From: Gemmatimonadota bacterium
Lineage (GTDB): Bacteria > Gemmatimonadota > Gemmatimonadetes > Gemmatimonadales > GWC2-71-9
Length of the DNA stretch: 64,000 nucleotides
NCBI GenBank assembly: GCA_031367105.1
Contig: JANLPG010000120.1
Coordinates: forward strand, 12,016-76,015
Direction: 5' to 3'
The number at the start of each line of letters is the position of its first letter. Position 1 is the stretch's first letter. The notes beneath the pieces are model-generated. The model saw nothing but the letters and a program-made list of their open reading frames with translations. It was not told the origin of the DNA and ran no database searches. Both the position numbers and the translations under genes were made by a program. Below are positions 32,964 through 52,702 of this stretch, piece after piece.

Positions 32964-32967
<4 letters not shown>
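32284..32967 (+). CDS. yggS: PLP homeostasis protein YggS
   Basis: AVTKT, GENRVQE, WHLIGGLQRNK, IHSVDR, LSMGMSGDY..AVEEGAT..R.GT. Confidence 0.95.
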
Positions 32968-36181
<3,214 letters not shown>

Positions 36182-36185
<4 letters not shown>

Positions 36186-36565
36186 CCAAGATTCAGCTGA
36201 AGCATCTCGAGGCGCGGCTACTCGAGGAACGGAGCCGGGTGATGAAGGAGCTCGGTTACTATGACGAGGCCTTCAATTCGACGCTGCAGGGATCCGACGG
36301 CGATCTGTCGTCCTACTCCTTCCATATGGCCGATCAGGGCACCGACGCAATGGAACGCGAGAAGCAGTATCTCTTCGCCTCGCAGGAGGGACGCTACCTC
36401 TGGCACCTCAATGAGGCGTTGCGCCGGCTCTACAACCAGCCCGACAAATTCGGCAACTGCCACCAGTGCGGCACGAAGATTGATTTCGAGCGACTGGACG
36501 CGCTGCCGCACGCACGACTCTGCATCTCGTGCAAGGAGAAGGAAGAGGATGGCAAGCGGCGTTAG
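36182..36565 (+). CDS. TraR/DksA C4 zinc-finger protein
   Basis: HMADQGTD coiled-coil tip, CHQC...RL.ALP.ARLCISC. Confidence 0.9.
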
Positions 36566-37058
36566 TTGGCGGCCCCCGTTCTGGGGGCTGGTGGCCATCG
36601 TGGTGGTGCTCGACCGGATCACCAAGGTGCTGGCGGAGCGCGCGCTCGGCGCTGGAGAAGTCGCCTCGCTGGTCGGCGACACGGCGCAGCTTCGTCTTGT
36701 CCACAACCCCGGGGCGGCGTTCGGCCTCAACCTCGGCGCATACTCCCGCTGGATCTTCATGGCGATTGCGATCGTGACGGTGCTCTTCCTCTATCGGATG
36801 TGGAAGGAGACGGCACTCACTGAGCGGTTGCGGCTCTACGCGCTGGGATTCGTCGCGGGCGGTGCCGCGGGCAACCTGATCGATCGCTTCATCTCACCGC
36901 GCGGCGTCGTTGACTTCATCGACGTCGGCATCGGCGTCGCGCGGTGGCCCACGTTCAACGTCGCGGACATCGCGGTGTCCTGCGGCGCCGTGGCATTGGC
37001 GCTGTCGCTCTGGCGCGAAGATGCGCGGCGCGCGGCCGCGATCGTGCCACCCACGTGA
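36549..37058 (+). CDS. lspA: Lipoprotein signal peptidase II
   Basis: D.ITK, N.GAAFG, GA.GNLIDR, VVDFI, WPTFNVAD. Confidence 0.95.
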   Translation: MASGVSWRPPFWGLVAIVVVLDRITKVLAERALGAGEVASLVGDTAQLRLVHNPGAAFGLNLGAYSRWIFMAIAIVTVLFLYRMWKETALTERLRLYALGFVAGGAAGNLIDRFISPRGVVDFIDVGIGVARWPTFNVADIAVSCGAVALALSLWREDARRAAAIVPPT

Positions 37059-38053
37059 CCTGCTGCGTCCTGGTCGACTCGACCGAGCGCCTCGACCGCT
37101 TTCTCGCCGATCAATTGCAGATGTCGCGCACCGTGGCGGCACGCCTGGTGGCCGAGAAGGCAGTGTCGGTCAACGCCGTGGTGGCTCGCGCCTCACGCAC
37201 GATGCAGCGCGGTGACCTCATCGAGGTGACGTTTCCTGAACACGAAGCACCCCGGACCTTCACGCCCAACCCGATCGGACTCACCATCGTCTACGAAGAC
37301 GACGACCTCGCCGTCATCGACAAGCCCGCCGGGCTGGTGGTGCATCCCGCACCGGGGCACTGGGACGACACCCTCGTTAATGCGCTGGTCGCACGCGGGA
37401 CAACCCTCGGAGGCGGTGCCGAGGGGCGACCGGGAATCGTGCATCGACTTGATCGCGAGACCAGCGGACTGATCATTGTGTCAAAGACCGATCTCGCGCA
37501 TCGTCGACTCGGTGCGATGATCGCCGCGCGCAAGGTCGCCCGCGTCTATGCCGCGATGATCTGGGGCCATCTCGACGAGCCGAAAATCACCATCGAAGCG
37601 CCACTCGGTCGGAGTCATCGCGACCGCAAGCGTGTGGCGATCATCCCCGAGGGTCGCCCCGCCAAGACCGACGCGTTCGGGATCGCCCACCTTGGCCCGG
37701 TGGAGATCGTCCGGCTCGAACTGCACACCGGCCGTACCCACCAGATCCGGGTGCATCTCGAATCCATCGGACATCCGGTCGTCGGAGACCCGGTCTACAC
37801 CGGGGGTGGTTGGAAGCGGATTTCCGGTGTGGGTCGCGCCCAGGCCAGGCTGCTCGCCTCGCTGGCACCGCGGCAGGCACTTCATGCCGCCCTTCTGGCG
37901 TTCCGCCACCCCATCAGTGGCGAACCGCTCCGATTGACCTCTCCCTGGCCGCTCGACCTCTGGCCACTCCTGGAGACCGCGGCCGGCGCCGGTGTCCTTC
38001 CGAGTCGGGAGGAGGCGCTGTCGGCCATCGGCTTCGAAACCCAGCATGCCTGA
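37055..38053 (+). CDS. rluD: RluA/RluD family pseudouridine synthase
   Basis: S4 domain, DKPAGLVVHP, GIVHRLDRETSG, TGRTHQIRVH, RQALHA. Confidence 0.93.
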   Translation: MTCCVLVDSTERLDRFLADQLQMSRTVAARLVAEKAVSVNAVVARASRTMQRGDLIEVTFPEHEAPRTFTPNPIGLTIVYEDDDLAVIDKPAGLVVHPAPGHWDDTLVNALVARGTTLGGGAEGRPGIVHRLDRETSGLIIVSKTDLAHRRLGAMIAARKVARVYAAMIWGHLDEPKITIEAPLGRSHRDRKRVAIIPEGRPAKTDAFGIAHLGPVEIVRLELHTGRTHQIRVHLESIGHPVVGDPVYTGGGWKRISGVGRAQARLLASLAPRQALHAALLAFRHPISGEPLRLTSPWPLDLWPLLETAAGAGVLPSREEALSAIGFETQHA

Positions 38054-38408
38054 CAGCCTTCCGGCCGTTGGCGGTCTGGTGGTTCGGGTCGCCGGGACTC
38101 GCTGGTTCATCCCGGTGGACGGGGTGATCGAGGTCCTGCGAGATGCGACAATCGTCCGGGTGCCGGGTGGGGTGCCGGCGGTCCGGGGGATGGTCAACCA
38201 CCGCGGCCGGATCATCACGGTGGCCGACCCGGTCCGAGCGCTGGGGCTCCCAGGGGAGGCGGGCGGTGCGCGGGAACTGGTGGTGGTCGAGTCGGAGAGC
38301 CGCCGTTTCGCCCTCGCGGTGGATGGTGTGGTGGAGCTGACCGCCGAACCGCGCACGGGCCTTGCAACATTGGATTTGATCCAGGTCGCCCACGCGATCT
38401 TTGCCTGA
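38046..38408 (+). CDS. cheW: CheW domain protein
   Basis: V.EV...IVRVPG..PAVRGMVNHRGRIITV.D, FALAVDGV. Confidence 0.85.
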   Translation: MPDSLPAVGGLVVRVAGTRWFIPVDGVIEVLRDATIVRVPGGVPAVRGMVNHRGRIITVADPVRALGLPGEAGGARELVVVESESRRFALAVDGVVELTAEPRTGLATLDLIQVAHAIFA

Positions 38409-38428: not shown

Positions 38429-38794
38429 ATGGCCCAGCGGATCCTGATTTGTGATGACGCCATCTTCATGCGGACGATGATCGCCGATATCCTGACGGGT
38501 GCGGGGTACGAAATCGCCGGCGAGGCCGAAAGCGGCCTGCAGGCAGTCGAGCGCTACAAGGCAGTGAAGCCTGATCTGGTGACAATGGACATCGTGATGC
38601 CCGATATGGGCGGCATCGACGCCGTCCGGGCGATCATCGCCAGCGACCCCGATGCCAAGATCCTGATGTGCAGCGCGATGGGCCAGCAGGCGCTGGTGGT
38701 CGAGGCCGTCCAGGCCGGCGCGAAGGACTTCGTGGTGAAGCCGTTCCAGCCGTCCCGGGTGCTCGAGGCCGTCAAGCGCGTTCTGGGCGAATGA
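38429..38794 (+). CDS. cheY: Single-domain response regulator CheY
   Basis: DDAIFMR, PDLVTMDIVMPDMGG, SAMGQ, FVVKPF (Firmicute/Thermotoga-like CheY). Confidence 0.92.
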   Translation: MAQRILICDDAIFMRTMIADILTGAGYEIAGEAESGLQAVERYKAVKPDLVTMDIVMPDMGGIDAVRAIIASDPDAKILMCSAMGQQALVVEAVQAGAKDFVVKPFQPSRVLEAVKRVLGE

Positions 38795-40296
38795 CCGACC
38801 CGCGGCGGGCGCGATACGTCGCGCTCTTCGCGGCCGAGGCGCGCTCAATGCTCGGCGGGGCTCGGCGCACGATGGCGGCCTGGTTCGACGACCTGACCGA
38901 CACCAGCCACGCCGAAGAAATCTTCCGGGTGCTGCACACCATCAAGGGGATGGCCGCCTCACTTGAGTTCGACGCGGTATCCGAACTGACGCACGCGACC
39001 GAGTCGGCGCTCAGTTCGGTGCGAGAGGGCGTCCGCCCCGCCGACCGGGGATGGTTGCGAGAGCTTGAGCGTGGCCTCGATGACATCTCGGCCGAGTGCG
39101 AACGGGCCGTCGAAGGCGAGGGCGGTGCAGCCGCAGCAACTGCCGCTGGTGGCCCGACCGCCGCGCGCATTGTGCGGGTCGATATCGATCGTCTCGATGC
39201 GCTGTTCAGCGATCTCGGCGGGCTGGTAACCGCGCGGCAAGACCTCGAGCGCCACGCCTCGCGCGACACCCTTTCGCCCGTCGCGCGTGCCGCATCGGCG
39301 ATGGCGCACCGGCTCGATCTGCTGCAGGACCGCATCCTGCACGTGCGCCTGGCCCCACTCACGGAAGTGTTCGAACGGCTGCCGCCGCTGGTGCGGGACC
39401 TGGCCCGGCAGCTCGGGAAGGAAGTCACGGCGGAGATCTCCGGCGAGGGGCTCGAAGTCGACCGGGCCGTCCTCGACCATCTGCCCGAGCCGCTGATGCA
39501 CTTGCTGCGCAATGCGCTCGACCACGGGATCGAGTCGCCGGAGCTCCGGCGTGCGGCAGGGAAGCGGGCAGCCGGGCGCATCGCGGTGCGGGCACGCCGC
39601 GATCGCGATGCCGTGGTCGTAGAGCTCACGGACGATGGCCGCGGCATTGATCGCGAGCAGGTGGCAGCCAAGGCGCGTGAGCAAGGGATACTCGAGGAAG
39701 GTGCCGCCCTCTCCGACGACGGACTGCTGGCGGTGCTGGCCCGGCCAGGATTCAGCACCGCGCAGACGGTGACGGATGTGTCCGGGCGTGGTGTCGGACT
39801 CGACGTGGTGCTCGCCCGGCTCCACGAGATTGGGGCGGCGCTCTCGTTGACGACCGTCGCCGGGAAGGGGACGGTGTTCACGCTCCGGCTGCCGATGCGA
39901 CTTGGCATCGTCCGGGCACTGGTGACCGGCATCGGCGATGAGCGGTACGTGATGCCGCTGACGCACGTGGCCGAACTCATTGCCTGGGATCCATCGACGG
40001 TGCGGCAGGTCGATGGGCGCTCGGTGATCGAGCACCGCGGGGAGACGATTCCGGTGGTCGACTTGCGCCGGCTGCTGCTCTATCGTGGTGCCGCGGCGCC
40101 GCTGCGCCGCCCCGCGGTGGTGTTCGAAGCCAACGGCCAGCGCGTGGTGCTGGTGGCCGATGCGGTCCACGGCCAGATCGACGCGGTCGTGCAGCCGATC
40201 CAGCGGCCCCGTGGGATGCCGCGCTGGATCACCGGCGCGGCGGTGCTGGACAATGGCCGACCGGCGCTGTTGCTCGACCTGGCGAGCGTCGTATAG
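38791..40296 (+). CDS. cheA: Compact CheA histidine kinase (Hpt-dimerisation-HATPase-CheW, no P2)
   Basis: FRVLHTIKGMA, VRVDIDRLD, HLLRNALDHGIE, DDGRGID, PGFST...SGRGVGLD, C-terminal CheW domain. Confidence 0.92.
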   Translation: MTDPRRARYVALFAAEARSMLGGARRTMAAWFDDLTDTSHAEEIFRVLHTIKGMAASLEFDAVSELTHATESALSSVREGVRPADRGWLRELERGLDDISAECERAVEGEGGAAAATAAGGPTAARIVRVDIDRLDALFSDLGGLVTARQDLERHASRDTLSPVARAASAMAHRLDLLQDRILHVRLAPLTEVFERLPPLVRDLARQLGKEVTAEISGEGLEVDRAVLDHLPEPLMHLLRNALDHGIESPELRRAAGKRAAGRIAVRARRDRDAVVVELTDDGRGIDREQVAAKAREQGILEEGAALSDDGLLAVLARPGFSTAQTVTDVSGRGVGLDVVLARLHEIGAALSLTTVAGKGTVFTLRLPMRLGIVRALVTGIGDERYVMPLTHVAELIAWDPSTVRQVDGRSVIEHRGETIPVVDLRRLLLYRGAAAPLRRPAVVFEANGQRVVLVADAVHGQIDAVVQPIQRPRGMPRWITGAAVLDNGRPALLLDLASVV

Positions 40297-40356: not shown

Positions 40357-40977
40357 ATGCCCACACCGAACGATATCGATACGCTGCGCCGCGACGGACT
40401 CCGTGAGGTCGCGACCATCGGCGCAGGCCACGCCGCGACGGCGCTGTCGCAACTGACGGATCGTCGCATCATGATCTCCGTGCCGCAGGTGCGCCGTGTC
40501 AACTACGGCGAAGTGCCCAAGATGCTGTCGAGCTTCGGTGGTCACGTTGCCCTGGTCTCGATGCGGATGTTGGGTGACCTGACCGGCCGGGCATTGCTTG
40601 CCTTCGCCGAGCAGGATGCCACGCGACTGTGCGACCTGATCCTGCGGCGACCAGTTGGGCCACCCCGCGCACTCGGGGAACTGGAGCAGTCGGGCCTCAA
40701 GGAGGTCGGCAACATCGTCTGCTCGGCCTACCTCACTGCGCTCAGCAACTTCATGGGAATGATGCTGCTGCCGTCGGTGCCGTCACTCACGGTCGGCCCG
40801 ACGGATTTGGCGATCGCGTCCACCGTCGATCCCGAGGAGGAAAGCAGCGATCTCCTGTTCTGCGTCGACACGGCATTCCGTGCCGAGGGCAATGAGCATC
40901 CCTTGACCGGGGCATTCCTGCTGATGCCCGACCACGCCTCGATCAAGGCGATTCTCGAGGCCATCCGGCTCGACTAG
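40357..40977 (+). CDS. cheC: CheC-family phosphatase
   Basis: LREVATIGAGHAATALSQL and LKEVGNI..SAY repeats. Confidence 0.88.
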   Translation: MPTPNDIDTLRRDGLREVATIGAGHAATALSQLTDRRIMISVPQVRRVNYGEVPKMLSSFGGHVALVSMRMLGDLTGRALLAFAEQDATRLCDLILRRPVGPPRALGELEQSGLKEVGNIVCSAYLTALSNFMGMMLLPSVPSLTVGPTDLAIASTVDPEEESSDLLFCVDTAFRAEGNEHPLTGAFLLMPDHASIKAILEAIRLD

Positions 40978-40978
40978 G

Positions 40979-42121
40979 ATGACGGCGCCCCGTCCGCGCG
41001 ACGCCGCTGTTGTCGCTGCGCTGGTGCGACGGCTCGGTACCACCGACGCCGCGACGCTGACGAACCTTGCCTGGTTCGCGGCGCGGCGCGGGGCTACTGC
41101 GGCCGCGCTCGATACCGTGCGCCGCGCCGTGGCGATGCCCGGCGCACCCCGTGCCGCCTGGCGCACACTGGAGCGGCTCGCCGTCGGGCGGACCGATCAG
41201 TTGCTGCTGGCACTTCCTCCCGGCCAGGCTGCCACGGCCGCTGGTCCGTTGGCCACGCATCCGCTCGCCGCAGCTGTTGCTGCCCACGCGCAGGGTGCGC
41301 TCGCCGTCGCCGAGGCGTGCTATTGGGCCGCCACCGAAGATGGCCCCGATGCGATCGCGGCGTGGAACGGGTTGGCAGTCTTGCACGAGGAGCGAGGCGA
41401 ACGCTCGGCGGCCGACGAGGCGTGGCGGCGGATTGCCGAGTCACCCAGTGTCGCCGTGGCGCACGATCACGTGCTGGCCTGGCACCGCCGCGGCGAATCG
41501 CGGCACGCCCGGACGCTGCTTGAGCACGCCATCTTGCGCCTGCCCCGCTCGGCGCCGCTCCTCCACCTCGCGGGATATCTGGCCTACATTGGCGGCGAAG
41601 CCGCGGCGGCAGTGCCGTTCCTGACCGCGGCCGTCGCCATCGACCCAGCGCTCGCGCGGTCCCACTTCACCCTTGGCCTCGCACACGAGCGCCTCGGGGC
41701 ACACACCTTGGCGGTGGAAGCGACTCGCCACGGACTGCAATGCTCGCCCTGGTTCGTCCCCGAGGTCTGGTTGCTTGACAACGGACGTCGCGGCGAACTG
41801 GTTGAAATTGCTCCGGAACGCTCCACCGGAACCGCCGCTGCCACAGATGAAGTCCTCCTCGCACTCGGTCGCTCGCTTCTCGAGACGCTGCACCTCGGCG
41901 AGGCGCTCTCGGTCTTCGATCAGGTGCTCGTGCGGCAGCCGTCGCACACGGCTGCGCTGTTCCACCGCGGCGTCGTGTTAGCCAAACTGCGCCGGTACAA
42001 CGACGCGTTGGCCGATTGGGAAGCCGTCGGAGTGGCGGATGGGGAGAGCGTGCTCGGGGCGATGAGTCGCCGACACGCGCACTCGGCACGCGAACTTGCC
42101 GCCCTCTTCCCGGTCAGCTAG
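40979..42121 (+). CDS. TPR repeat protein
   Basis: AWNGLAVL, ARSHFTLGLA, ALFHRGVVLAKLRRY..A TPR consensus. Confidence 0.8.
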   Translation: MTAPRPRDAAVVAALVRRLGTTDAATLTNLAWFAARRGATAAALDTVRRAVAMPGAPRAAWRTLERLAVGRTDQLLLALPPGQAATAAGPLATHPLAAAVAAHAQGALAVAEACYWAATEDGPDAIAAWNGLAVLHEERGERSAADEAWRRIAESPSVAVAHDHVLAWHRRGESRHARTLLEHAILRLPRSAPLLHLAGYLAYIGGEAAAAVPFLTAAVAIDPALARSHFTLGLAHERLGAHTLAVEATRHGLQCSPWFVPEVWLLDNGRRGELVEIAPERSTGTAAATDEVLLALGRSLLETLHLGEALSVFDQVLVRQPSHTAALFHRGVVLAKLRRYNDALADWEAVGVADGESVLGAMSRRHAHSARELAALFPVS

Positions 42122-42128
42122 GCGCTGC

Positions 42129-43052
42129 GTGCACGGGCCACTCAGTGAGATCTCACTCGTAGAAGTGCTCCAGCTCCTCCAACGCGGCCGTCGGAGCGGA
42201 ACCCTGCGCGTCACCGGCCCTGACCCGACCGCGCCGCGCACGCTCTGGCTCCGCGAAGGGCTGGTGGTCGCACTAGAACCCGAAGCCAGTGACGCCGCCG
42301 TCAACGATGGCCTGATCGCGCGTGCCCTCGCGAGCGAGGAAGCTGACGACGGACCGGACACCGTGCCGGCACCCATTCGGGACGCACTCCGGGCCCGGCT
42401 CGCGAGTGCCGCCCTGGGGGTAATGCTCCACTGGTCCCGCGGTCGGTTCGATTTTGCAGAGGGCGTCGTCGCAGTCGGGCCCCTCGCCGTCTCGCCCGAT
42501 GCGCTCGTGTTCGAGGTCGTCGAAACCGAGATGCGCCGGGTCGACCTCGCCGCCGAGTTCGACCAGTTCCGAGCCATTCCCGCGTTCGCTCCGACGGAAA
42601 CACTCGCCGACGGCCCCGCCCCCTCGCTCGACCCGTTGGATTGGCGGCTGCTCGACGCGGTGGATGGCGTGCGCAACGTGGCCGCGCTCGCCGCTGCCCT
42701 GGATGAACCGCTCGATGTGATCGCCGATCGGGTTCGGTCGTTGCAGTCCACCGCTATACTTCAGCTCGCCGCTGCACCCGCCGATGTTTCGCTCGAGGCG
42801 AGGGCTGCCATCGAGGCGGGTCGGTATGACGAGGCCGCCGCGCTGCTCCGCTCGCGAGTAGCCGCCGTGCCGGGCGATGGCGAGGCGTGGCGAACGCTCG
42901 GCCTCGCCGAGGTCGGGGCGGGGCGGTTCGATCGCGCCATCGGCGCGTGGGAGGGATGGCGCGCCGCCGATCCGCTGCGCGCCGAGGAGGCTGCGTCGCT
43001 GACGCGTGCTGCCCAGACTATGGTGGAGGCGTTGCGCGACGGCCGTGACTGA
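42129..43052 (+). CDS. DUF4388 domain plus TPR protein
   Basis: G.LSEISLVEVLQLL....RSGTL, W..GRFDF, winged-helix-like segment, C-terminal TPR. Confidence 0.8.
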   Translation: MHGPLSEISLVEVLQLLQRGRRSGTLRVTGPDPTAPRTLWLREGLVVALEPEASDAAVNDGLIARALASEEADDGPDTVPAPIRDALRARLASAALGVMLHWSRGRFDFAEGVVAVGPLAVSPDALVFEVVETEMRRVDLAAEFDQFRAIPAFAPTETLADGPAPSLDPLDWRLLDAVDGVRNVAALAAALDEPLDVIADRVRSLQSTAILQLAAAPADVSLEARAAIEAGRYDEAAALLRSRVAAVPGDGEAWRTLGLAEVGAGRFDRAIGAWEGWRAADPLRAEEAASLTRAAQTMVEALRDGRD

Positions 43053-43797
43053 ATCGTTTCCGACACTCCCCGGCGTCACTCAGGGCCTCGCCTTTCTGGA
43101 CCTCGGCGAGCGCCTGCGACAGCGTGGCCAGCACGAGGCCGCCGCGACGGTCGCGCTCGCCGGGTTGGCGCGGTATCCGGCGCTGGCCGACGCGCACGAC
43201 CTGCTTGCGCGCATCCGCGCCGACCAGGGCGAGGATGCCCCGGCGATCGCGTCGTGGCGTGCCTCCCTCGAGATCGAGCCCGGTCACATCGGCGCGCTCA
43301 AGGGACTCGCGTTTCTCGCCTTCCGGGCGCACGATCTGGCGGGCGCGGAGCGCTACCTTGAGTCCGCTGCGATGCGTGCCCCCCACGACACCACGATCCT
43401 CGCTGCCCTCGACCGGGTGCGTGCCTCGGCGCCGGCACCGTCGGCCGAGTCGTTCCGACTCGATGACCTCGCCAGCGGCCTGCTGCTGTTCGACAGTCAG
43501 GGGATGCGATTGACGGGCGGCGTCGGCCCATCGACTGGTGAGCTCGACGCCGATGCCACCGCGGCCGAGGCATCGGGCCTGGTGCGGGAGGCCATCCGCG
43601 CGGCCCGCTTCCTCGAGTTGGGCGCCTGGCAACAGCTGGTACTCGAAGGGAGCGAGGCCCGGGCCGCGCTAGTCGCGATCACTCCCGAGGCGACCCTGCT
43701 GGTGCGCCGTCCGGTGAGCACCCCGCCAGGACGATTGCTTGCGACCAGCGCACGAGCCGCGGACGTGGCGCGCGAATGGCTCGGTCGGGCGCAATGA
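43045..43797 (+). CDS. TPR plus C-terminal Roadblock-like domain protein
   Basis: ADAHDLLARI, ALKGLAFL TPRs; LLLFDSQG..L...LELGAWQQLVLE Roadblock pattern. Confidence 0.72.
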   Translation: MTESFPTLPGVTQGLAFLDLGERLRQRGQHEAAATVALAGLARYPALADAHDLLARIRADQGEDAPAIASWRASLEIEPGHIGALKGLAFLAFRAHDLAGAERYLESAAMRAPHDTTILAALDRVRASAPAPSAESFRLDDLASGLLLFDSQGMRLTGGVGPSTGELDADATAAEASGLVREAIRAARFLELGAWQQLVLEGSEARAALVAITPEATLLVRRPVSTPPGRLLATSARAADVAREWLGRAQ

Positions 43798-44147
43798 GCA
43801 TCGCACGGTGGGAGGGGATGCTGCGCGAAATCACCGGCATCATCGGCGTCCGCGGTGCCCTGATCATCTCCGCAGACGATGGGCTGGTGGTTGCGGAATC
43901 GGCGATGGAAGGGCTCGAAACCACGGACGTGGCCGCTTTCGCCGCGTCGCTGATTTCGCGCGCGCAGCGCACCGCGGCAGCGATGCGCACCAGCCCGCCG
44001 ACTCGATTGCACGTCACTGCCGAGTTGGGAACTCTCTTCGCGGTGGCCGGCGGCGAGCCGCTCTGGCTGGTCGCGGTGACCGACCCCACCGTCGAACTCG
44101 GCCGGCTCCGCATCCTGCTCGGCGACCTCGCTGTCGTGCTGGCCTGA
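43794..44147 (+). CDS. Roadblock/LC7 (MglB-like) protein
   Basis: GVRGALIISADDGLVVAE, VAAFAASL, ELGRLR. Confidence 0.85.
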   Translation: MSIARWEGMLREITGIIGVRGALIISADDGLVVAESAMEGLETTDVAAFAASLISRAQRTAAAMRTSPPTRLHVTAELGTLFAVAGGEPLWLVAVTDPTVELGRLRILLGDLAVVLA

Positions 44148-44614
44148 TGCGGGTTCTCGAACCGTGGGTTGCCGACCCGCTCGCGGAATTTCTGCGCGAG
44201 TCATCCGCCCGGCTCGCCCTGGTGATGACGAGCTCCGGTCAGGTCATTGCGCAACACGGCTTCACCCGTTCGCTGGACGTGATGGCCGCGGCGGCGCTCG
44301 GCGCCGGTATCCTTGCTACCACAGCTGAACTGGCGCGGGTGGTCGGCGCCGACGCCGGCTTCGGGGTGATCGTCCATCAGGGTCACCAGCAAGGTGTCTG
44401 GCTCGCCGGATTCGACACGCCCCGTGGCCGCTGGATCGCTCTGGTGGTGTTCGGTCGCGAATCGTCGGTCGGGCTGGTCCGCCTCTTCTTCGCTCGCTTC
44501 ACCGAGCGCCTGGTCGCAGCGGCGCCGGTTGCAGTGCTGGTGCGCGAGGTGCTCGCCGAAGGCTTCGAACGGGAACTCGACGACTCGCTGCGTGCCCTCT
44601 TCGGGCGGAGCTGA
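44147..44614 (+). CDS. MglB-like Roadblock protein
   Basis: SGQVIAQHG, AALGAGILATTAELARVVG...F..IVHQG, VVF...SSVGLVRL, as in MglB. Confidence 0.8.
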   Translation: MRVLEPWVADPLAEFLRESSARLALVMTSSGQVIAQHGFTRSLDVMAAAALGAGILATTAELARVVGADAGFGVIVHQGHQQGVWLAGFDTPRGRWIALVVFGRESSVGLVRLFFARFTERLVAAAPVAVLVREVLAEGFERELDDSLRALFGRS

Positions 44615-44616
44615 CG

Positions 44617-45216
44617 ATGGCTCGGACGAATGGCGCGCAACGGGAACTCACCGCCACCCTGGTCGTCTACGGAGCAGCCCGGTCGGGGAAGAGCTCGATC
44701 TTGCGCTGTGTGCAGGATCGGGTGGCGCCGGCGCGCCTCGGTGAGCGTTATCCGCTCGGCTCCCCTCCATCGGGCGTGCCGTTGCTCGACTGGCTGCCAC
44801 TCGAACTTGGCCTGATTGGCGGCTGGCAGGCCCGCGTCAATCTGTACGGCGTCCCCGCGGAGCGCCACGCCGACACCACGCGCCGCCTGGTCCTCGCCGA
44901 GGCCGATGGCATCCTCTTCGTAGCCGACAGCCAGGCGTCACGGCTCTCGGAGAACCTCGATGCGTTGCAATCGCTGCAGGGCGAGTTGCTCGACCGTGAT
45001 GGCGATCTGCGTGACCTTCCGCTCGTGCTGTTGTACAACAAGCAGGATCTGCCGGCGGAGATGATCCTGACACCCGACGCGCTGGGGGAGGCGCTCAATT
45101 TTCGCGGCGCACCGAGTTTCGCCTGTGACGCATTGCGGGGGGTGGGAGTGCTTGAGGCGCTCCACAGCGGAGTGACCCGGATGATGCGGCGCCTTGCGCC
45201 TGCACAGGGGGGGTGA
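44617..45216 (+). CDS. MglA-like small GTPase with degenerate catalytic motifs
   Basis: VVYGAARSGKSS, DWLPLELG, DGILFVADSQ..R..EN, YNKQDL, L...LN, A..G.GV. Confidence 0.82.
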   Translation: MARTNGAQRELTATLVVYGAARSGKSSILRCVQDRVAPARLGERYPLGSPPSGVPLLDWLPLELGLIGGWQARVNLYGVPAERHADTTRRLVLAEADGILFVADSQASRLSENLDALQSLQGELLDRDGDLRDLPLVLLYNKQDLPAEMILTPDALGEALNFRGAPSFACDALRGVGVLEALHSGVTRMMRRLAPAQGG

Positions 45217-45223
45217 CGCAGCG

Positions 45224-47224
45224 ATGCTGAACCCGCATTCACGCTTCGCCTCGTTCGTGGTAGGCTCGTCCAATCGACTCGCGGCCACGGCCGCCAAGGC
45301 GGTGGCCGAGGCGCCCGGTGCTGCCTACAACCCGCTCTGGTTCTACGCTCGGCCCGGGCTCGGCAAGACCCATCTCCTGATGGCGATCGGGCACGAGGCA
45401 CAGGTGATCGATCCGTCGCGCACCGTGGAGTACGTCACCGTCGATGATTTTGTCGAGGCGTATCACGCGGCGCTCGCCGCCGGGCAGGCCGAGGCGTACC
45501 GGCGCCGCTTCACCGAGGCAGATCTCGTCTTGCTGGATGACGCCCAGCTCCTCACCGATCAGCGCGAGTTGCAGTCGGAATTGCTTCGGCTGATTGATCT
45601 CCTGATGGCGGGTGACCGACAGATTGTCCTGGCTGGTGATCGCCCCCCGGAAGAGATCCAGTCACTCGACGAACGGCTGATCCGTCGCTTCGCCGGTGGT
45701 CTGGTGATTGATATCGGTGCCCCTGACTACGAGACCCGGCTCGCCATCCTGGCGCGTCGCGCCCAGGAACGACAGATCGTCTTCGCGCCGGAAGCGCTGG
45801 CCGCGGTGGCGGAGCTGCCGATCGGGACTGTGCGGGAATTGCTCGGCGCCCTCAATCGGCTGATTGCGCAGCAGGCAGTGCAGGCGTCGCAGCTCAGTGC
45901 GGCGGAAGTGCGACTTCTCCTCGCCAGCCTGGGGCACGTGAAGCCGGGGGAACCGGTCGATGGATCGACTCCTTCCGCGAGCGACGAGTCACGAGGCGGA
46001 GCGAACGCCGCCACGCCGCGAACGGAGCATGGCGAGGACGCCGGCGCAGCGGAAGACGAGTTTTCCGACTTTCTCTCGGACCTCTCGGCCGCGGTATCCC
46101 ATCAGGTCGACCGCTGGCGCCGGCGCGTGACCGAAGCGACGCTGCGTTACGTGGGTGAGGGATTCCGAACCAATCGGCTGGAGGCACTGCTCGCGGGCGA
46201 GATGGGGAGCGACCCTGAGGTGGCACTGGCGGAGTTCGAGCGCGATGTCGAGGCGTTACGTCGTCTGCAACGCGAACTTGCGGAACTCGCGCCTTCGCTT
46301 CTGGGAGAGGCGGCGCTCCACGACCCCGACCGCCTCGCCGAAGCCGACGCGTTGGTGGCTGAGGCGCGCGACGTTGGCGAGCCATTGCCCGGGCCGATGG
46401 CGCGCTACACGCTCGAACTTTTCGGGGAAGGCCCCAGCACGCGTTCGGTGACTGAGGCCATCCGGACGGCGGCGAGCGACCCGGGGCAACGCTACAACCC
46501 CTTCGTGATCGTCGGCCCGAGCGGCACAGGGAAAACCCACCTGCTCCACGCCTTCGCGCACGCTCTGCGCGCGTCGGGCTTGACGCGCGTGGCGGTGTTC
46601 GACGCCCAGCAGTTCGTTGATGGACTGGTCGCAGCCCTCGGCGATGGCAGCATTGCCCGATGGCGGCAGCGATTGCGCCGGGTCGAGGCGCTCCTGCTGG
46701 ACGATGTCGGTGTATTGGCGGGAAAGGAACGCAGTCAGGAGGAGCTCTACCAGCTGTATAACCTCCTGCTCGAGTCAGGACGGCAGATGGCGTTCACGGC
46801 CAGCGTTCTGCCCACCCAACTCGAGGGCTTCGAGTCACGGCTGGCCACCCGGCTCGCGGGTGGATTGGTGCTGGAGCTCGGATCGCCCGATCGCGACGCG
46901 AGGCTGCAGGAGGTCGTGCGCCTGCTCGGCCCGGCCGCGGAGGACGCCGACCTGGTGGAATATCTCGCGGCGCGCCCGGCCGGATCGTTGCGCGAAGTCC
47001 AGCAGCTGTTGCAACGTCTTGCGGCCGCGGTCGAAGAGCGCCAGACCACACTGACATTCGCGTTGGCGCGAACGCTGCTCGAAGGGTCGCAGGTTGAAGG
47101 ACCGCGACCCCCGCGTCGGGGCAGCGGATTGCTCGCTCCCGGAAGTGGTGCGGTTCGCTCCCGCGAAAAAATGGTCGACATCTGGCCGGACATCGGCGAG
47201 CGCTTGCTGGAGGAGTGGCGCTGA
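45224..47224 (+). CDS. Tandem DnaA/Hda-type AAA+ protein lacking DnaA domains I and IV
   Basis: Two modules: FVVGSSN..A..YNPL..GLGKTHL..LDD..RL.RRF.GG..VREL and YNPF..GTGKTHL..LLDD..SQEEL..RL.TRL.GG..LREV. Confidence 0.88.
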   Translation: MLNPHSRFASFVVGSSNRLAATAAKAVAEAPGAAYNPLWFYARPGLGKTHLLMAIGHEAQVIDPSRTVEYVTVDDFVEAYHAALAAGQAEAYRRRFTEADLVLLDDAQLLTDQRELQSELLRLIDLLMAGDRQIVLAGDRPPEEIQSLDERLIRRFAGGLVIDIGAPDYETRLAILARRAQERQIVFAPEALAAVAELPIGTVRELLGALNRLIAQQAVQASQLSAAEVRLLLASLGHVKPGEPVDGSTPSASDESRGGANAATPRTEHGEDAGAAEDEFSDFLSDLSAAVSHQVDRWRRRVTEATLRYVGEGFRTNRLEALLAGEMGSDPEVALAEFERDVEALRRLQRELAELAPSLLGEAALHDPDRLAEADALVAEARDVGEPLPGPMARYTLELFGEGPSTRSVTEAIRTAASDPGQRYNPFVIVGPSGTGKTHLLHAFAHALRASGLTRVAVFDAQQFVDGLVAALGDGSIARWRQRLRRVEALLLDDVGVLAGKERSQEELYQLYNLLLESGRQMAFTASVLPTQLEGFESRLATRLAGGLVLELGSPDRDARLQEVVRLLGPAAEDADLVEYLAARPAGSLREVQQLLQRLAAAVEERQTTLTFALARTLLEGSQVEGPRPPRRGSGLLAPGSGAVRSREKMVDIWPDIGERLLEEWR

Positions 47225-48843
47225 TGGCGATCAAGGGTTCGCTCAAGGAGGCATCGCTCCCCGACGTGGTACAGTTGCTCTACCTCGGCCGTCGCACCGG
47301 TTGCCTCTCGGTCGCCAACGATCGCAATTTTGCCTCGATCTGGCTCGACGATGGGTGGATCGTCTTTGCCGGCCTGTTGTCGCGCCCCGACCGCCTTGGC
47401 GAACGACTGGTTGCGGCGGGAAAGGTCAGTCCCGATCAGCTCGAGTCGGCGATTGCAACGCAATCGGCGCTCCCCGGCCATCGGCTGGGTGCGGTGTTGG
47501 TCCAGCTCGACCTGATCTCCCAGGCCGAACTGGAGGGTGAACTGCGTCGCCAGGTCGAGGAGACCATCTACACCCTCTTCACGTGGGCCAGCGGAACCTT
47601 CTCCTTCGAGGCAGGCATCTCCCCGGACGAAGCGGAGGGGACAGTGCGACTCAATCCCGAGGGGCTGCTGCTCGAAGGGGCACGCCGAGTCGACGAATGG
47701 AGTGTGATCGCGAAGAAGATTCCGTCGCTCGACGCCGTCTTCGCGATCGAGGGCGAGGGTGCCATTGAATTCAAGGGTGAGCCAGCCCTGGTCGATATCG
47801 AGCGTCGGGTGCAGCCGTTGATCGACGGAGCCCGCACGGTCCGGGATATGATGGACGCCACTGGTCTCACCGATTTCGAAGTCTGCCGTGCGCTCTTTGG
47901 CCTGCTCTCCGCTGGCCGGCTTCGGCGCGTGGCGACTGCACCCCCGGCGGTCCCGCGTCAGGGGACGGCGCGGCTCGAGGAACATCGCAACCTCGGCGTC
48001 GCCTTCTACCGCACCGGGATGTTGAATGAAGCCGAGCGCGAATTCAAGCGCGTCGCCGAATTGCGTCCCGGTGATGGCGAGGCGTCCTTCCGGCTTGGTC
48101 TGATTGCGCTGCGGCAAGCGCGCTGGGCCGATGGGCTGGCGCAATTTCAGCGGGCAACCGAGCGAGGCGGCGCACGACCTGCGGTGCTGCACAACCTTGC
48201 GCTGGCCCTCGAGTCACTTGGCCGCCTCGACGAGGCGGAGACGGCGCTCGGCGAGGCCGTGCAGCTCGACAAGGACGACCCACGGCTCTGGACCGGCTGG
48301 GGGTTGCTCGCGCTGCGGCGCAGTGAACCTTCGCGCGCACTGGAGCGCTTCGCCCGCGCCCGCGACTTGGTGGGGCAGGGGAAGCCGCCAGCCCACTGGT
48401 ACTGGGGCTGCGGCTGGGCCCAGGCGCTCTCCGAGGCGTGGCCGGACGCGCTCGCGACCATTCGCGAGGGGGTTGTGGCATTTCCCGATCATCCGGTCCT
48501 GCGGACCACGTTGGGCGTCCTGCTCGAAGGTACCGGCGAGGTGGGTGAGGCCGAGGCCCACTTGCGCCACGCACTCGGCGAGGATCCGACCATCCCGCAG
48601 ATTTCCAAGAATCTCGGGGACTTGCTCTATCGTGCCGGCCGCTGGGATGAGGCCGAAGAATCCTACGACCGCGCTGCCAAGCTGGCCCCGACTCTGGGAG
48701 ACGATCTCTACTTCAAGCTGGGCAACCTCGCCTGCCGTCGGGGCGATATGCCGAAGGCGCGACGGCACTGGGGGGCAGCGCTGGCAATCAATCCCGAGCA
48801 CGCCCTGGTCCGCGCCAATCTCGCCGGCTCCGGTGCGGCGTGA
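47224..48843 (+). CDS. DUF4388 plus multi-TPR protein
   Basis: MAIKGSLKEASLPDVVQLL..RRTGCL, W..GTFSF, LLLEGARRVDEW, then many TPRs (HRNLGVAFY, LHNLALAL, SKNLGDL). Confidence 0.88.
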   Translation: MAIKGSLKEASLPDVVQLLYLGRRTGCLSVANDRNFASIWLDDGWIVFAGLLSRPDRLGERLVAAGKVSPDQLESAIATQSALPGHRLGAVLVQLDLISQAELEGELRRQVEETIYTLFTWASGTFSFEAGISPDEAEGTVRLNPEGLLLEGARRVDEWSVIAKKIPSLDAVFAIEGEGAIEFKGEPALVDIERRVQPLIDGARTVRDMMDATGLTDFEVCRALFGLLSAGRLRRVATAPPAVPRQGTARLEEHRNLGVAFYRTGMLNEAEREFKRVAELRPGDGEASFRLGLIALRQARWADGLAQFQRATERGGARPAVLHNLALALESLGRLDEAETALGEAVQLDKDDPRLWTGWGLLALRRSEPSRALERFARARDLVGQGKPPAHWYWGCGWAQALSEAWPDALATIREGVVAFPDHPVLRTTLGVLLEGTGEVGEAEAHLRHALGEDPTIPQISKNLGDLLYRAGRWDEAEESYDRAAKLAPTLGDDLYFKLGNLACRRGDMPKARRHWGAALAINPEHALVRANLAGSGAA

Positions 48844-49682
48844 CGACCCCCGACCCGCTCGCCAGCTTCCGCGCCGAATACCAGCGATTGAGTGCCTCGC
48901 TGACGCGACCGCTTGCGGCACGGGAGCGCGACACCCTGCGCGCCGCGATCATCGCGCTGTTCAAGGAAGTTGATGGGCTGCTGACCGAGGTCGATGCGTT
49001 CAAGGCATCGATTCGCGCGCTGGTCGACGGCTTCAAGGCGCTGCCGGCGGACGAGGCCGCTGCCACGGTACGGTACGATCACCTCGGCGCTTCGACAGCG
49101 ATGGAGCGGGGCTGGAGCGACTTGGCGGGGGCGCGCTGGAGCGGTGCCGAGGCACACTTTCGCGAGGCGATCGCCCGCGATCCTGGCAGTACCGATGCGC
49201 CGGCATTGCTCGGTTGGGCACTGATGCACCAGCAGCGTCACGACGAGGCCCTGCAGCTCTGCCTCCAGGTGCTGATGCGTGAGCCGGAGCACGGGCTCGC
49301 GCGAGTGGCACTCGGATTCGTCTGTCTGCGCAAGGGCATCACCGGCGAAGCGATGGAGCATCTCTCCCGCGTGGCCGGTCGGCCGGGAGACGCGCGCGCA
49401 ATTCTTTACGCGAGTTACTGGCTCGGCGTCGCCTACATCGAACGCGAGATGGATACCGACGCCGTGGAACTGCTGCGGCGGGCGGTGACGCTCGGGCCGA
49501 ACCTCGCCGAGGGTTGGGCCGACCTTGGCCGTGCACTCTGGTTCCGAGGCGAGCCCGAGCGGGCACGGGAGGCCTGGTCCACCGGTTCGGTAGTGCGGTA
49601 CTCACCCTACGCCGAGCGGAACAGCACCCTCCTCGATGTCACCAATGCCGGGGGAGTGCCGCCACGTTCCGCGTTCCGCTGA
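48840..49682 (+). CDS. Coiled-coil plus TPR protein
   Basis: N-terminal helical hairpin; LLGWAL, LGFVCL, YWLGVAY, LGRAL TPRs. Confidence 0.8.
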   Translation: MTTPDPLASFRAEYQRLSASLTRPLAARERDTLRAAIIALFKEVDGLLTEVDAFKASIRALVDGFKALPADEAAATVRYDHLGASTAMERGWSDLAGARWSGAEAHFREAIARDPGSTDAPALLGWALMHQQRHDEALQLCLQVLMREPEHGLARVALGFVCLRKGITGEAMEHLSRVAGRPGDARAILYASYWLGVAYIEREMDTDAVELLRRAVTLGPNLAEGWADLGRALWFRGEPERAREAWSTGSVVRYSPYAERNSTLLDVTNAGGVPPRSAFR

Positions 49683-50626
49683 GCCTGCTGCTCGCGCTGC
49701 AGGCGCCCCCGTCTGGCCAGCCTGCCTCGCCACCGTTGCCCGGAGTGCGGATCGAGGTTGGGGAGATCACCGTGCTGGTCGACCGGAAGCACGCCGTCCT
49801 CGGCAGGTCGTTGGGCGAAGCGGCCGGCGTGGTCCGGGAGTGGCTCGGGCTCGGCCGGCTGGATCTGGGGAAGCTCGTCCTCGTGGTGGTTCCCGATACC
49901 GCTGGCTTCCGCGCCTGGTCGCGGGGCCGGGTTCCGACCTGGGGGGCTGGGCTGACCCTGCCGGGAAGCCGGTTGGTGGTTGTCCGGGTCGACGCCGGCG
50001 ACCCCTTCGGCACCCTGAGGCACGAGTTGGCGCACATCGCCCTCCACCAACGGGTGACGGGCCGTGTCCCGCTCTGGTTTGACGAGGGCTTTGCCGTCCT
50101 GGCAGCTGGGGAGTATGGTCGCCTGGCGGGGCTCCAGCTCAATATGTCGGTCGCGGCGGGGCGAGTGCCTACCCTCCGGGCCCTGGATGCCGACCTCCGG
50201 GGGAGCCGCGGCGACGCGGAGGCCGGCTATGCCCTAGCGGGGTCAGCCGTCTCCTACCTCGCCCGGCGGAATCCCTCGGGTGGGCTCGAGCCGATGCTGG
50301 CGCGACTGGTGAGCGGGATGCCGTTCGATGAGGCCGTCCTGGCGACCACTGGCCTGACTGAGGAGCGGTTCAGCGACGCCTGGCACCGTGATGTCCGGCG
50401 GCGCTTCAACTGGCTGGTCTGGTTTATCACCGGCGGTGCGTGGCTGGTCATCGCGCTGCTGTTGGGGTGGGCCGCGGCGTGGCGCCGCCATCGGGACGCC
50501 CCCCGGAGGGCGGCCCTCAACCAGGGGTGGGTCATCGAAGATGACCCCGCAACCGAAGATGACGAGGAGATTACAACACCAGACCAGTCCCCCGATCCGC
50601 TTGACCCATCTGACTCTGGCCGCTAG
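49679..50626 (+). CDS. Peptidase MA-like (gluzincin) protein with C-terminal TM anchor; start uncertain
   Basis: HELAH...PLWFDEG, hydrophobic C-terminal helix, acidic tail. Confidence 0.75.
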   Translation: MSLLLALQAPPSGQPASPPLPGVRIEVGEITVLVDRKHAVLGRSLGEAAGVVREWLGLGRLDLGKLVLVVVPDTAGFRAWSRGRVPTWGAGLTLPGSRLVVVRVDAGDPFGTLRHELAHIALHQRVTGRVPLWFDEGFAVLAAGEYGRLAGLQLNMSVAAGRVPTLRALDADLRGSRGDAEAGYALAGSAVSYLARRNPSGGLEPMLARLVSGMPFDEAVLATTGLTEERFSDAWHRDVRRRFNWLVWFITGGAWLVIALLLGWAAAWRRHRDAPRRAALNQGWVIEDDPATEDDEEITTPDQSPDPLDPSDSGR

Positions 50627-50629
50627 CCT
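50601..50629 (+). promoter_or_regulatory. sigma70 promoter for small ORF and tRNA-Val
   Basis: TTGACC-N17-TAGCCT. Confidence 0.55.
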
Positions 50630-50638
50630 CCTCACCCT

Positions 50639-50830
50639 ATGCCACCTACCGACCCGATCTCCGTGCCTCCGGCGGCGCTCTTCTCGCGCCGCAATCTCCT
50701 CCTGATCGCCGTGGCACTGGCGAGCATCGGGGCCGGCTACGCTGTGCTCCTCGGCGGCTCCCCAGGGGCCGCCGCAGTCCTGCTCGTCGCCGGATATTGC
50801 GTGCTCTTTCCCTTGGCACTTCTCGCCTGA
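50639..50830 (+). CDS. Small two-TM membrane protein (DUF3098-like)
   Basis: FSRRNLLL...GY.....A.VLLVAGYCVLFPLAL. Confidence 0.6.
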   Translation: MPPTDPISVPPAALFSRRNLLLIAVALASIGAGYAVLLGGSPGAAAVLLVAGYCVLFPLALLA

Positions 50831-50843
50831 ACTGCGGCGCGTC

Positions 50844-50917
50844 GGGCGAATAGCTCAGCTGGTTAGAGCGCCTGCCTTACACGCAGGATGTCGGGGGTTC
50901 GAATCCCTCTTCGCCCA
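50844..50917 (+). tRNA. tRNA-Val(TAC); CCA not encoded
   Basis: GGGCGAA/TTCGCCC acceptor stem, anticodon arm CCTGC-CTTACAC-GCAGG, TTCGAAT T loop. Confidence 0.96.
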
Positions 50918-50983
50918 TCGTCGGCGTGTCGCAAACGAGGCCGGACCCGTCTTATGCATTTGAACCTCACGGAGGTAGCTGGG

Positions 50984-52702
50984 ATGTTGCAACAGGTGTC
51001 GTCGCTCGTGGTTCTCGCCGTCATCGTCACGGCCGCCCCCGCCCCCGCCGCCGCAAACCAGATCCGCGGGACCATCCGCGGCGGGCAGATGCAGGCGCCG
51101 AAGACTCTGGTGTTGATCGCCAACCCCTACACGTCCAGTCCCTCCGACTCGGCGTTCACGGTCGCGATCGGGAGCAGCGCGCGCGAAAAGCTGGAGCGCA
51201 GCGTGGGGGCAGAGTACGGTGTGGTGACCCGCAAGCAGATGAATGACGCGCTGATCTCATTCGGGTACAGCGGCGACGCCATCCTGACGCCAGGCTCGGC
51301 AGGGGAGATGGCCCGATCGATGGCCGTACGGTATTACGTGACCAGCACGCTCGTGAAGGCGGGCGGTGGCTACTCCGTCACTGCGCGAATGATCGGCACC
51401 AACCTCGACGTCGGTCAGGTCGTCACCGCCACAGGCACGACTCCGGGCGAGCTCGGCGGCAAGATGGCTGATGGCGTCGGACCGGCGATTCGTGCGATTG
51501 CCGACGCCAAGCTCTGCAATGAAAATTCAGTGACGAAGCCCGCCAAGGCGGCCGAGGCGGCCGCCAAGGCGATCAAGGCAGTCCCGAACTTCGGGCTCGC
51601 CGAATACTGCCTCGCCGAAATCGCGCTGAAGCGGGACTCGGTCGGCGCCGAGGCGATGGGCCACTTGCAGAACACCGTCAAGGGCGATCCGCTCTCGCTT
51701 GTGGCACTGAGTTCGATCGCAGTGATCTACCAGAAGAAGGGCGACAGTACCAGGACGATCGAGACATTTCAGCAGATGCTCCGGGCAGCCCCGACCAACA
51801 AGCCGCTGCTGGAGCGAGCCTTCAAACTCTTCCTGGGCTATGGCAAGCCGGAAGCGGCGATGGCGGTGGCCGACGAGGGGATCAAGCAGGATCCGAGCAA
51901 TCCGGACTGGTACGACCTGAAGAGCAACGTCTGCTTCGCGAAGGAAGACTACGCCTGCGCCGTCACTGCGCTGGAGCAGGTCTTCGCCGTCGACAGCACG
52001 AGAGCCGACAGCCTCTTCTACCAGAAGATCCTCTTCGCTGCATCGTCAAAGCCTGACACGGCGAAGTATCTGGCCTACAGTCTCCGCGCAACCAAGCGGT
52101 ATCCGGACAATGCTGGATTGCTGGAGGAGCTCGCCAAGGCGTACTCCCTCGCTGGTCAGACCGACTCCACGGTCGCGGTGACACAGCGGCTGGTGAAGGT
52201 TGATCCGACGAAGACCGATGCCGTCCTCCGGGTCGTGAAACAGCTGCTCGACGCCAAGAAGCCGCGTGAGGCAATTCAGTTTGCCCCGAGCATCAAGCAG
52301 TACGGTGATGAGGAAGCAAAGAACAACTTTGCGAACCTCGCGCTGCAGTCGATGCAGGCGCTGGCAGGTGTCAAGCCGCTCGACGCCCAGTTGCTGGTGG
52401 ACATCGGTGAAGCCGCGCTGTCGGTCGGGCCGACCAATCCGAATATTCTGCTGTTCACGAATTACTTCTACGCCGTCGGGTTGCAGCCCTCACTCAGCGC
52501 ACTCGCGCTGTCGTCGCGGGCGCAGAAGTCGTGCGAACTCGCCAAGAAGGAGCAGGCGTTGCTGGTGAAGCTCGAGCCGGCAGTGACGCTCGCGGCCACC
52601 AGCTCGAACGCCGGCGTGGCCGCCTACGCCAAGCAGTTGCTCACGTCCGTCCAGACCGAGAAGCCTGCGGTGGTGCAGATGATCGGCTCCTTCTGCAAGT
52701 AA
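50984..52702 (+). CDS. Exported TPR-repeat protein
   Basis: GGAGG RBS, signal peptide, N-terminal alpha/beta domain, many TPR-like helical pairs. Confidence 0.8.
   Translation: MLQQVSSLVVLAVIVTAAPAPAAANQIRGTIRGGQMQAPKTLVLIANPYTSSPSDSAFTVAIGSSAREKLERSVGAEYGVVTRKQMNDALISFGYSGDAILTPGSAGEMARSMAVRYYVTSTLVKAGGGYSVTARMIGTNLDVGQVVTATGTTPGELGGKMADGVGPAIRAIADAKLCNENSVTKPAKAAEAAAKAIKAVPNFGLAEYCLAEIALKRDSVGAEAMGHLQNTVKGDPLSLVALSSIAVIYQKKGDSTRTIETFQQMLRAAPTNKPLLERAFKLFLGYGKPEAAMAVADEGIKQDPSNPDWYDLKSNVCFAKEDYACAVTALEQVFAVDSTRADSLFYQKILFAASSKPDTAKYLAYSLRATKRYPDNAGLLEELAKAYSLAGQTDSTVAVTQRLVKVDPTKTDAVLRVVKQLLDAKKPREAIQFAPSIKQYGDEEAKNNFANLALQSMQALAGVKPLDAQLLVDIGEAALSVGPTNPNILLFTNYFYAVGLQPSLSALALSSRAQKSCELAKKEQALLVKLEPAVTLAATSSNAGVAAYAKQLLTSVQTEKPAVVQMIGSFCK

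Follow-up and report, generated by a model that had tools for sequence, protein, structure and literature searches.

MglA is a model bacterial Ras-like switch, and a 2014 survey reports its Arg finger, R53, as conserved in all Group 1 members (PMC4316618), the group that includes the MglA/MglB pairs of Myxococcus xanthus and Thermus thermophilus. In Thermus, MglB contacts MglA at L55, F56, F57, F59, β3 and α2; the same report finds that Q82A abolishes hydrolysis, that R53A and G21V reduce it, and that all three variants bind MglB normally, and in the complex as described there MglB has no residue that reaches the active site of MglA (PMC3199381). The MglB C-terminal helix is reported to bind an MglA pocket with L64/I67 and to let MglB hold MglA in either nucleotide state (PMC6785124; also PMC11016934, PMC13408092). 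The nearest natural departure is the MglA of Bdellovibrio bacteriovorus, which has lost G21 (G21S), is proposed to be non-cycling and has a TPR-protein partner (PMC3983030), and pseudo-GTPases are known from bacteria to humans (PMC12490416). Here we describe a second MglA paralogue, MglA2, encoded in a 64,000-nucleotide stretch of DNA (hereafter the window) from a Gemmatimonadota bacterium (lineage Gemmatimonadales; GWC2-71-9; assembly GCA_031367105.1, contig JANLPG010000120.1, positions 12,016 to 76,015). Sequence comparison points to a genus-wide, selected loss of catalysis in this protein. No description of a degenerate MglA2 or of its operon was found in the literature, although subscription papers lay mostly outside that search, as did the supplements of PMC4316618 that list Gemmatimonadetes MglAs.

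MglA2 resembles Group 1 MglA in fold, descent, the acidic C-terminal helix of its MglB, the hydrophobic β2 face and the L64/I67 pocket (PMC3199381, PMC6785124, PMC4316618), but it has lost G21, R53, T54 and TVPGQ and is a second paralogue in a che/TPR/DUF4388/AAA+ operon. Its direct orthologues, the intact MglA2 proteins of other Gemmatimonadota, have the same gene order and the same three Roadblock genes; they keep all catalytic motifs, are ~80% identical between genera, and have neighbours that keep an MshEN motif, the CheA P2 domain and a long TPR protein. In Bdellovibrio MglA a single residue is changed, the threonine and G3 are kept and mglB is missing (PMC3983030), whereas MglA2 has lost the entire switch, retains its MglB2 partner and coexists with an intact paralogue. 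A kept pocket combined with missing G12-type, G3 or catalytic Thr residues also recalls Rnd1-3/RhoH (PMC13236570) and the class II septin pseudoGTPases, and MglA2 fits the sequence definition of that class as given for septins, with catalytic residues absent and a mostly normal pocket (PMC10731463). Rnd/RhoH are, however, described as constitutively active signallers (PMC13236570), while MglA2 has an unconstrained switch I, belongs to the bacterial MglA lineage and is of independent origin.

The window protein descends from Group 1 MglA but should not be classed as an active member. M. xanthus MglA (5YMX) matches its open reading frame (ORF) with E 3.7e-32, and because the alignment has no gap before residue 148, MglA residue numbering applies directly. 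The four motifs quoted in the original prediction all stand in this frame, and the replacement of Arg, Thr and Gly-Gln that it described holds on the 5YMX alignment, which shows R53G, T54V, G81A and Q82E. Further changes are G21A, at the position equivalent to Ras G12, T78G and N28I. Of the Group 1 features, R53-T54 and TVPGQ with catalytic Q82 are therefore absent (the latter reads GVPAE), G1 (GAARSGKS) fits the GxxxxGK[S/T] consensus and G4 keeps NKxD (NKQD). An AlphaFold model built from 42 genus sequences retains the MglA fold (mean predicted local distance difference test 86.7, predicted template modelling score 0.85), with low confidence over residues 41-60 (64), and its top Foldseek match is the MglA of 6IZW (6IZW_A; template modelling (TM) score 0.85). 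Both descent inside the MglA clade and coupling to mglB are seen: the protein nests among intact MglA2, and mglB2 adjoins its gene.

The loss extends across the genus. Of the 301 genomes of the phylum that we surveyed, 238 had MglA matches, and genomes of the order mostly carried two; we call the window paralogue MglA2 and the canonical copy elsewhere in the genome MglA1. MglA2 was present in 47 of 52 genomes of the genus, which is known here from draft genomes only; the five without it are all <90% complete, and the four of these that were checked lack mglB2 too. Two frameshifted copies (L075 and L080, from genomes 56% and 61% complete) were dropped, leaving 45 loci for motif counts. All 45 are degenerate: G21, T54, T78 and the RT dipeptide occur in 0/45, the GQ dipeptide in 3/45 and Q82 in 16/45. 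Pocket residues are kept, with G19, G24, D104, K142 and D144 in 45/45, K25 in 44/45 and S/T26 in 42/45; D58 is present in 39/45, and a new W59 is fixed (45/45). GxxxxGK[S/T] fits 41/45 loci, NKxD 7/45 and [NTS]KxD 44/45. The intact NKQD noted in the original prediction is thus true of the window genome but not of most of its relatives, N141 being kept in only 7/45 and replaced by T, S or A in 38/45.

Outgroup MglA2 is uniformly intact. The outgroup set comprises 34 loci, 24 of them belonging to other genera of the same family and 10 to other families. G21, R53, T54, G81, Q82 and N141 are each present in 34/34, as are the RT and GQ dipeptides, and switch I always has 18 residues, versus 13-18 in the genus. 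These loci were chosen as good matches to a degenerate query, a bias offset by a check of 29 low-scoring genomes, among which no other degenerate MglA2 was found: every full-length MglA2-type match proved intact, and where family members scored low, this reflected contig ends or MglA1 matches. A further 80 loci were collected via intact-motif patterns, a set that cannot show degenerate forms. Among the best 120 of 1010 database matches, which overlap the genome set, 81 were degenerate, 39 intact and none intermediate, with K142 and D144 in 81/81 of the degenerate proteins. Sequencing error or chance was rejected as the source of the pattern, which recurs in all 45 readable genus loci and in 81/120 of these best matches. 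Separately, divergent MglA-like proteins occur in distant families, one (L210) without the RT motif and two (L213 and L214) without several of the G motifs; none of the three loci showed cluster neighbours.

Phylogenetic mapping places a single origin of the switch-residue loss at the base of the genus. A quick maximum-likelihood tree, from which four broken or truncated genus rows were omitted, groups the other 43 in one clade (Shimodaira-Hasegawa-like approximate likelihood ratio test 100) on a long stem, nested among the family's intact MglA2. Character mapping on a tree built from six neighbouring genes in 29 genus and 19 outgroup genomes gave a single change each for G21, T54 and F59, while G81, Q82 and N141 required 3-5 changes.

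mglA2 is not a pseudogene: purifying selection acts on it, and relaxation is concentrated in switch I and β0. Reading frames are uninterrupted in 45/47 loci, 43 of them full length and two truncated at contig ends. Across 12 close pairs, in which one genome appears twice, the ratio of nonsynonymous to synonymous substitution rates (dN/dS) spans 0.04-0.23, similar to accessory neighbours, and it is 0.14 pooled over 11 non-overlapping pairs; dS is near saturation in genus pairs, which would if anything inflate these values, and outgroup dN/dS was discarded because dS was saturated. The broken frames and dN/dS near 1 that mark a pseudogene are therefore not what characterizes this gene. By region, dN/dS reaches 0.44 in β0 and 0.27 in switch I, whereas the P-loop, β2-β3, switch II, α2-α3, G4 and α5 all lie at 0.08-0.11; site rates, with a median of 0.82, are 0.18-0.22 at pocket residues and mostly 1-2.3 in switch I. 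MglA2 identity is 47% within the genus versus 80% among other genera, opposite to the normal direction seen in MglB2 (75% versus 58%). The genus/outgroup tree-length ratio is 4.74 for mglA2 versus 0.70-1.35 for nine neighbours, so among these proteins MglA2 alone came under weaker constraint. Genus-wide fast evolution was rejected as an explanation, MglA1 and CheY being 91% and 88% identical within the genus. Relaxed selection only in this lineage, which the original prediction had set against its own reading, is thus partly borne out: a single genus shows the relaxation, but only certain regions of the protein are affected and purifying selection persists.

Three Roadblock genes precede mglA2, and the four abut on the plus strand (43045-43797, 43794-44147, 44147-44614 and 44617-45216). 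The three Roadblock/MglB domains first proposed are real as Roadblocks, though weak matches to Pfam PF03259 (E 3e-5, 9e-7 and 1.1e-3, of which the third misses the curated cut-off), but only the third protein, MglB2, is MglB proper (profile match to MglB 6IZW_B, E 4e-13), and its match to NF052242 falls far below that model's cut-off. The second is closest to uncharacterised Roadblock structures. Because the same three-Roadblock order accompanies intact MglA2 in 32/34 outgroup loci, the trio is ancestral and no response to a dead enzyme, which weakens the suggestion that heteromeric Roadblock partners serve the altered protein. MglB/RomY and Ragulator likewise place several Roadblock proteins around one small GTPase (PMC9481161), but the arrangement here, as seen in gene order, predates the catalytic loss.

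The predicted interface between MglA2 and MglB2 is largely conserved in the genus. The MglB2 C-terminal helix is invariant and its α2 face conserved, and MglB-contact residues of MglA2 include L57 (42/45), W59 (45/45), L64 (44/45), a hydrophobic residue (I/V/L) at 67 (45/45), R89 (45/45) and T88, which is also kept. Since the MglA2 face from 57 on, L64, I/V/L67, T88 and R89 persist together with the MglB2 α2 face and C-terminal helix, a lasting MglA2:MglB2 complex is predicted and likely.

Taken together, these patterns lead us to favor, with modest confidence, the reading that MglA2 of this genus is a likely pseudo-GTPase, predicted to keep guanine nucleotide and to act as a non-switching scaffold that never leaves the MglB2 dimer. 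Hydrolysis is very likely dead, because no member retains G21, R53 or T54 and most also lack Q82; published MglA mutants suggest that GAP-stimulated hydrolysis would be absent. In this second paralogue the residues for hydrolysis and those of switch I were lost a single time, at the genus base; conservation of the lysines and aspartate suggests that guanine nucleotide stays bound, and conservation of the interface that the protein remains on MglB2 as a static scaffold. On the same stem the cyclic di-GMP (c-di-GMP) input, the CheA P2 domain and the long TPR arm would have been stripped, giving a simplified module that, judging from its genes, may regulate type IV pili or polarity, while cycling would be left to the intact mglBA at another place in the genome. 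The pseudo-GTPase or scaffold of the original prediction accordingly gains support from the genus-wide loss of hydrolysis residues, the kept pocket and the low dN/dS.

Several observations weigh against this scaffold reading. Changes affect β0, positions 55-56 at the MglB face and the α5 lysines (the K181/K185 equivalents, now H/Q and T/S), so MglB2 binding may be weaker. The rest of MglA2 also evolves faster than in outgroups (core-region identity 0.54-0.65 versus 0.73-0.94). In M. xanthus, G19A, K25A, T26N, N141A, K142A and D144A are reported to give no detectable protein (PMC3000849), so the conserved pocket may reflect fold stability alone and the nucleotide may be only structural. The pocket itself varies, at N141 as above and at position 26, which is R or Q in 3/45, and Q82 survives in 16 loci. 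Finally, the type IV pilus output is only suggested, by gene content (pilus-type ATPases, with no flagellin found) and by analogy.

One alternative, which we regard as unlikely, is that MglA2 is GTP-locked and constitutively ON, sending a continuous signal to a TPR or AAA+ effector. Loss of G21 (45/45) and Q82 (29/45) agrees with it, as does retention of D58, a Mg ligand of the GTP state; the structure model is slightly nearer GTP-state (TM 0.83-0.85) than GDP-state (0.80-0.81) M. xanthus MglA, a weak signal, and RomX binding is independent of R53 (10.1101/2024.02.20.581209). There are also precedents, a locked state having been proposed for Bdellovibrio MglA with its natural G21S (PMC3983030) and shown for Rnd/RhoH (PMC13236570). 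T54, however, is lost in 45/45, T54A and D52A are reported to delocalise M. xanthus MglA (PMC3000849), and MglA is reported to bind GTP ~100-fold more weakly than GDP already (PMC3199381). Switch I and β0 are the fastest-evolving regions and switch I is also variable in length, a pattern not expected of a surface that binds effectors; moreover, Bdellovibrio keeps the threonine and lost mglB, whereas mglB2 is strongly kept here. The missing T54 and the lack of constraint on switch I lead us to rank this alternative below the scaffold, and the GTP-locked state named in the original prediction stays uncertain for the same reasons. Slow decay, in which the GTPase cycle became dispensable beside MglA1 and left a folded, nucleotide-free and weakly kept relic, seems to us distinctly improbable. 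Relaxation restricted to the genus (4.7-fold), some very long branches, additional erosion at N141, Q82 and G81 that arose several times, and domain losses in neighbours on the same stem would all fit such decay, but the frames are uninterrupted except in two incomplete genomes, dN/dS matches that of the neighbours, W59 arose as a new invariant residue, and the checked genomes without mglA2 have no mglB2 either.

It is very unlikely, in our estimation, that MglA2 acts as a decoy, modulating how intact MglA1 cycles by binding Roadblock proteins (MglB1 or MglB2). Most genus genomes have both paralogue pairs, the MglB-binding face is conserved and hydrolysis-dead MglA mutants are reported still to bind MglB (PMC3199381), but one 98%-complete, 10-contig genus genome (G105, locus L061) keeps mglB2 and degenerate mglA2 while mglA1 and mglB1 were not found, which may be an assembly gap. 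We give least credence to an active GTPase that receives catalytic residues in trans from a Roadblock protein or other neighbour, the further option of the original prediction, which our results do not support. Genus-fixed MglB2 Q112R (44/44) and L104R in the stand-alone Roadblock, with the persistence of Q82 in some loci, might hint at such a supply. Position 112, however, is R in M. xanthus MglB and K in the MglB1 of the window genome, hence an ordinary MglB residue; the Thermus complex as described has no MglB residue reaching the active site (PMC3199381), and the lost T54 and G21 are not suppliable by a partner.

The MglA2 operon (Table 1) is ancestral in Gemmatimonadales. The conserved order is cheW, cheY, cheA, cheC, TPR, DUF4388-TPR, TPR-Roadblock, Roadblock, mglB2, mglA2, AAA+ and DUF4388-TPR, and the order of the five-gene core is kept in 45/47 genus loci (the other two reach a contig edge) and 32/34 outgroup loci. 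DUF4388 is presumably the PATAN domain. A promoter and terminator scan gave results at chance level. Upstream flank ORFs (within 32964-38053) are, from their translations, presumably ileS-like, dksA-like, lspA-like and RluD-like; the downstream flank (49514-52702) holds a peptidase MA-family ORF and a TPR-like ORF.

Table 1. Features of the MglA2 operon, in window coordinates (aa, amino acids)
Feature	Position	Strand	Remarks
cheW	37992..38408	+	start uncertain
cheY-type receiver	38429..38794	+	
cheA	38791..40296	+	without the P2 domain that outgroups have
cheC	40357..40977	+	
TPR protein	40979..42121	+	~380 aa here versus 887-995 aa in outgroups
DUF4388-TPR protein	42129..43052	+	start approximate; tandem MshEN-type c-di-GMP motif lost in genus
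TPR-Roadblock fusion	43045..43797	+	250 aa
Stand-alone Roadblock/LC7 protein	43794..44147	+	117 aa; without C-terminal helix
mglB2	44147..44614	+	MglB-type Roadblock; conserved α2 face, acidic C-terminal helix
mglA2 (degenerate)	44617..45216	+	199 aa; MglA paralogue; hydrolysis/switch residues lost (G21A, R53G, T54V, T78G, G81A, Q82E); genus-specific W59
P-loop (G1) GAARSGKSS	44671..44697	+	within mglA2
Switch I (residues 40-56)	44734..44784	+	scrambled, without Arg finger or Thr; length varies across genus
Switch-I motif SGVPLLDWLPL	44770-44802	+	within mglA2
Switch-II motif LYGVPAERH	44842-44868	+	within mglA2
G4 NKQD	45037..45048	+	within mglA2
Tandem DnaA-type AAA+ protein	45224..47224	+	both Walker A/B motifs kept; directly 3′ of mglA2
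DUF4388-MshEN-TPR protein	47224..48843	+	c-di-GMP motif kept
TPR protein	48840..49682	+	

Three neighbours were altered on the same stem as mglA2; given shared ancestry, these losses count as one event with no independent confirmation. The upstream DUF4388-TPR protein has an MshEN-like motif in 31/32 outgroup versus 0/46 genus copies, has also lost its ExARRxDEW motif genus-wide (0/46), and is matched by the NCBIfam c-di-GMP model in 10/10 outgroup versus 0/9 genus copies scanned; its downstream paralogue keeps both the MshEN (39/41) and the ExARRxDEW motif. The CheA linker has 71-78 residues in 36/38 genus copies versus 179-251 in 21/23 outgroup copies, and Pfam P2 was found in the outgroup linker (2/2 scanned). 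The TPR protein following cheC has 375-390 aa in 35/47 genus loci (10 shorter, 2 longer) versus 887-995 aa in 31/32 outgroup loci, a shortening by ~500 N-terminal residues, with ~195 aa in some genus members. A search at E 1e-25 gave no match to the 900-aa TPR protein in a Cystobacter genome, so we do not call it SgmX. The tandem AAA+ gene directly follows mglA2 across the order and is well conserved in the genus; its DnaA-like product has no Pfam DNA-binding domain match, and in five non-Gemmatimonadota genomes a search for the tandem form gave single-domain matches in four and none in the fifth. A separate single DnaA-like match on contig C33 is probably the true dnaA. No chemoreceptor was found among the scanned cluster genes; two MCP-domain (chemoreceptor) genes of the window genome sit on contigs C192 and C114.

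The canonical mglBA of the same genome (G000:C146:12392-13784; L002, L033) lies beside recR and dnaX with all motifs intact, and its MglA1 carries a ~30-residue insertion after G4. MglA1 is intact in 41/41 genus and 28/28 outgroup loci. Pilus-type ATPases are present in the window genome and flagellin was not found there; a link between the MglA2 changes and flagellar loss was rejected, flagellin being patchy in the genus (13/20) and in other genomes (9/30). MglC offers another comparison for multi-Roadblock regulation, and an orphan 117-aa Roadblock gene of this genome (L032:1426-1779; G000:C72) is possibly MglC-like; its neighbours, from their translations, are presumably a sugar-phosphate nucleotidyltransferase-like ORF and an efp-like region.

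A broader and rather speculative possibility is that the genus hard-wired an ancestral Che/c-di-GMP/MglA2 switch: one stem would have lost the GTPase cycle, one c-di-GMP sensor and the CheY-docking domain of CheA, and the dead GTPase would serve as a permanent MglB2-bound landmark that positions the tandem DnaA-type AAA+ protein while the intact MglA cycles. The Arg finger of MglA is reported for every Group 1 member (PMC4316618); an orthologue without it that selection nevertheless maintains across a whole genus provides a natural live/dead pair with the same partners. Such a pair would permit tests of the role of the MglA-MglB complex without a GTPase cycle and would help separate regulator from effector surfaces. 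It also bears on how a pseudo-GTPase may arise after duplication, and it exposes across Gemmatimonadota an MglA2 operon that combines a che system with a tandem DnaA-like ATPase.

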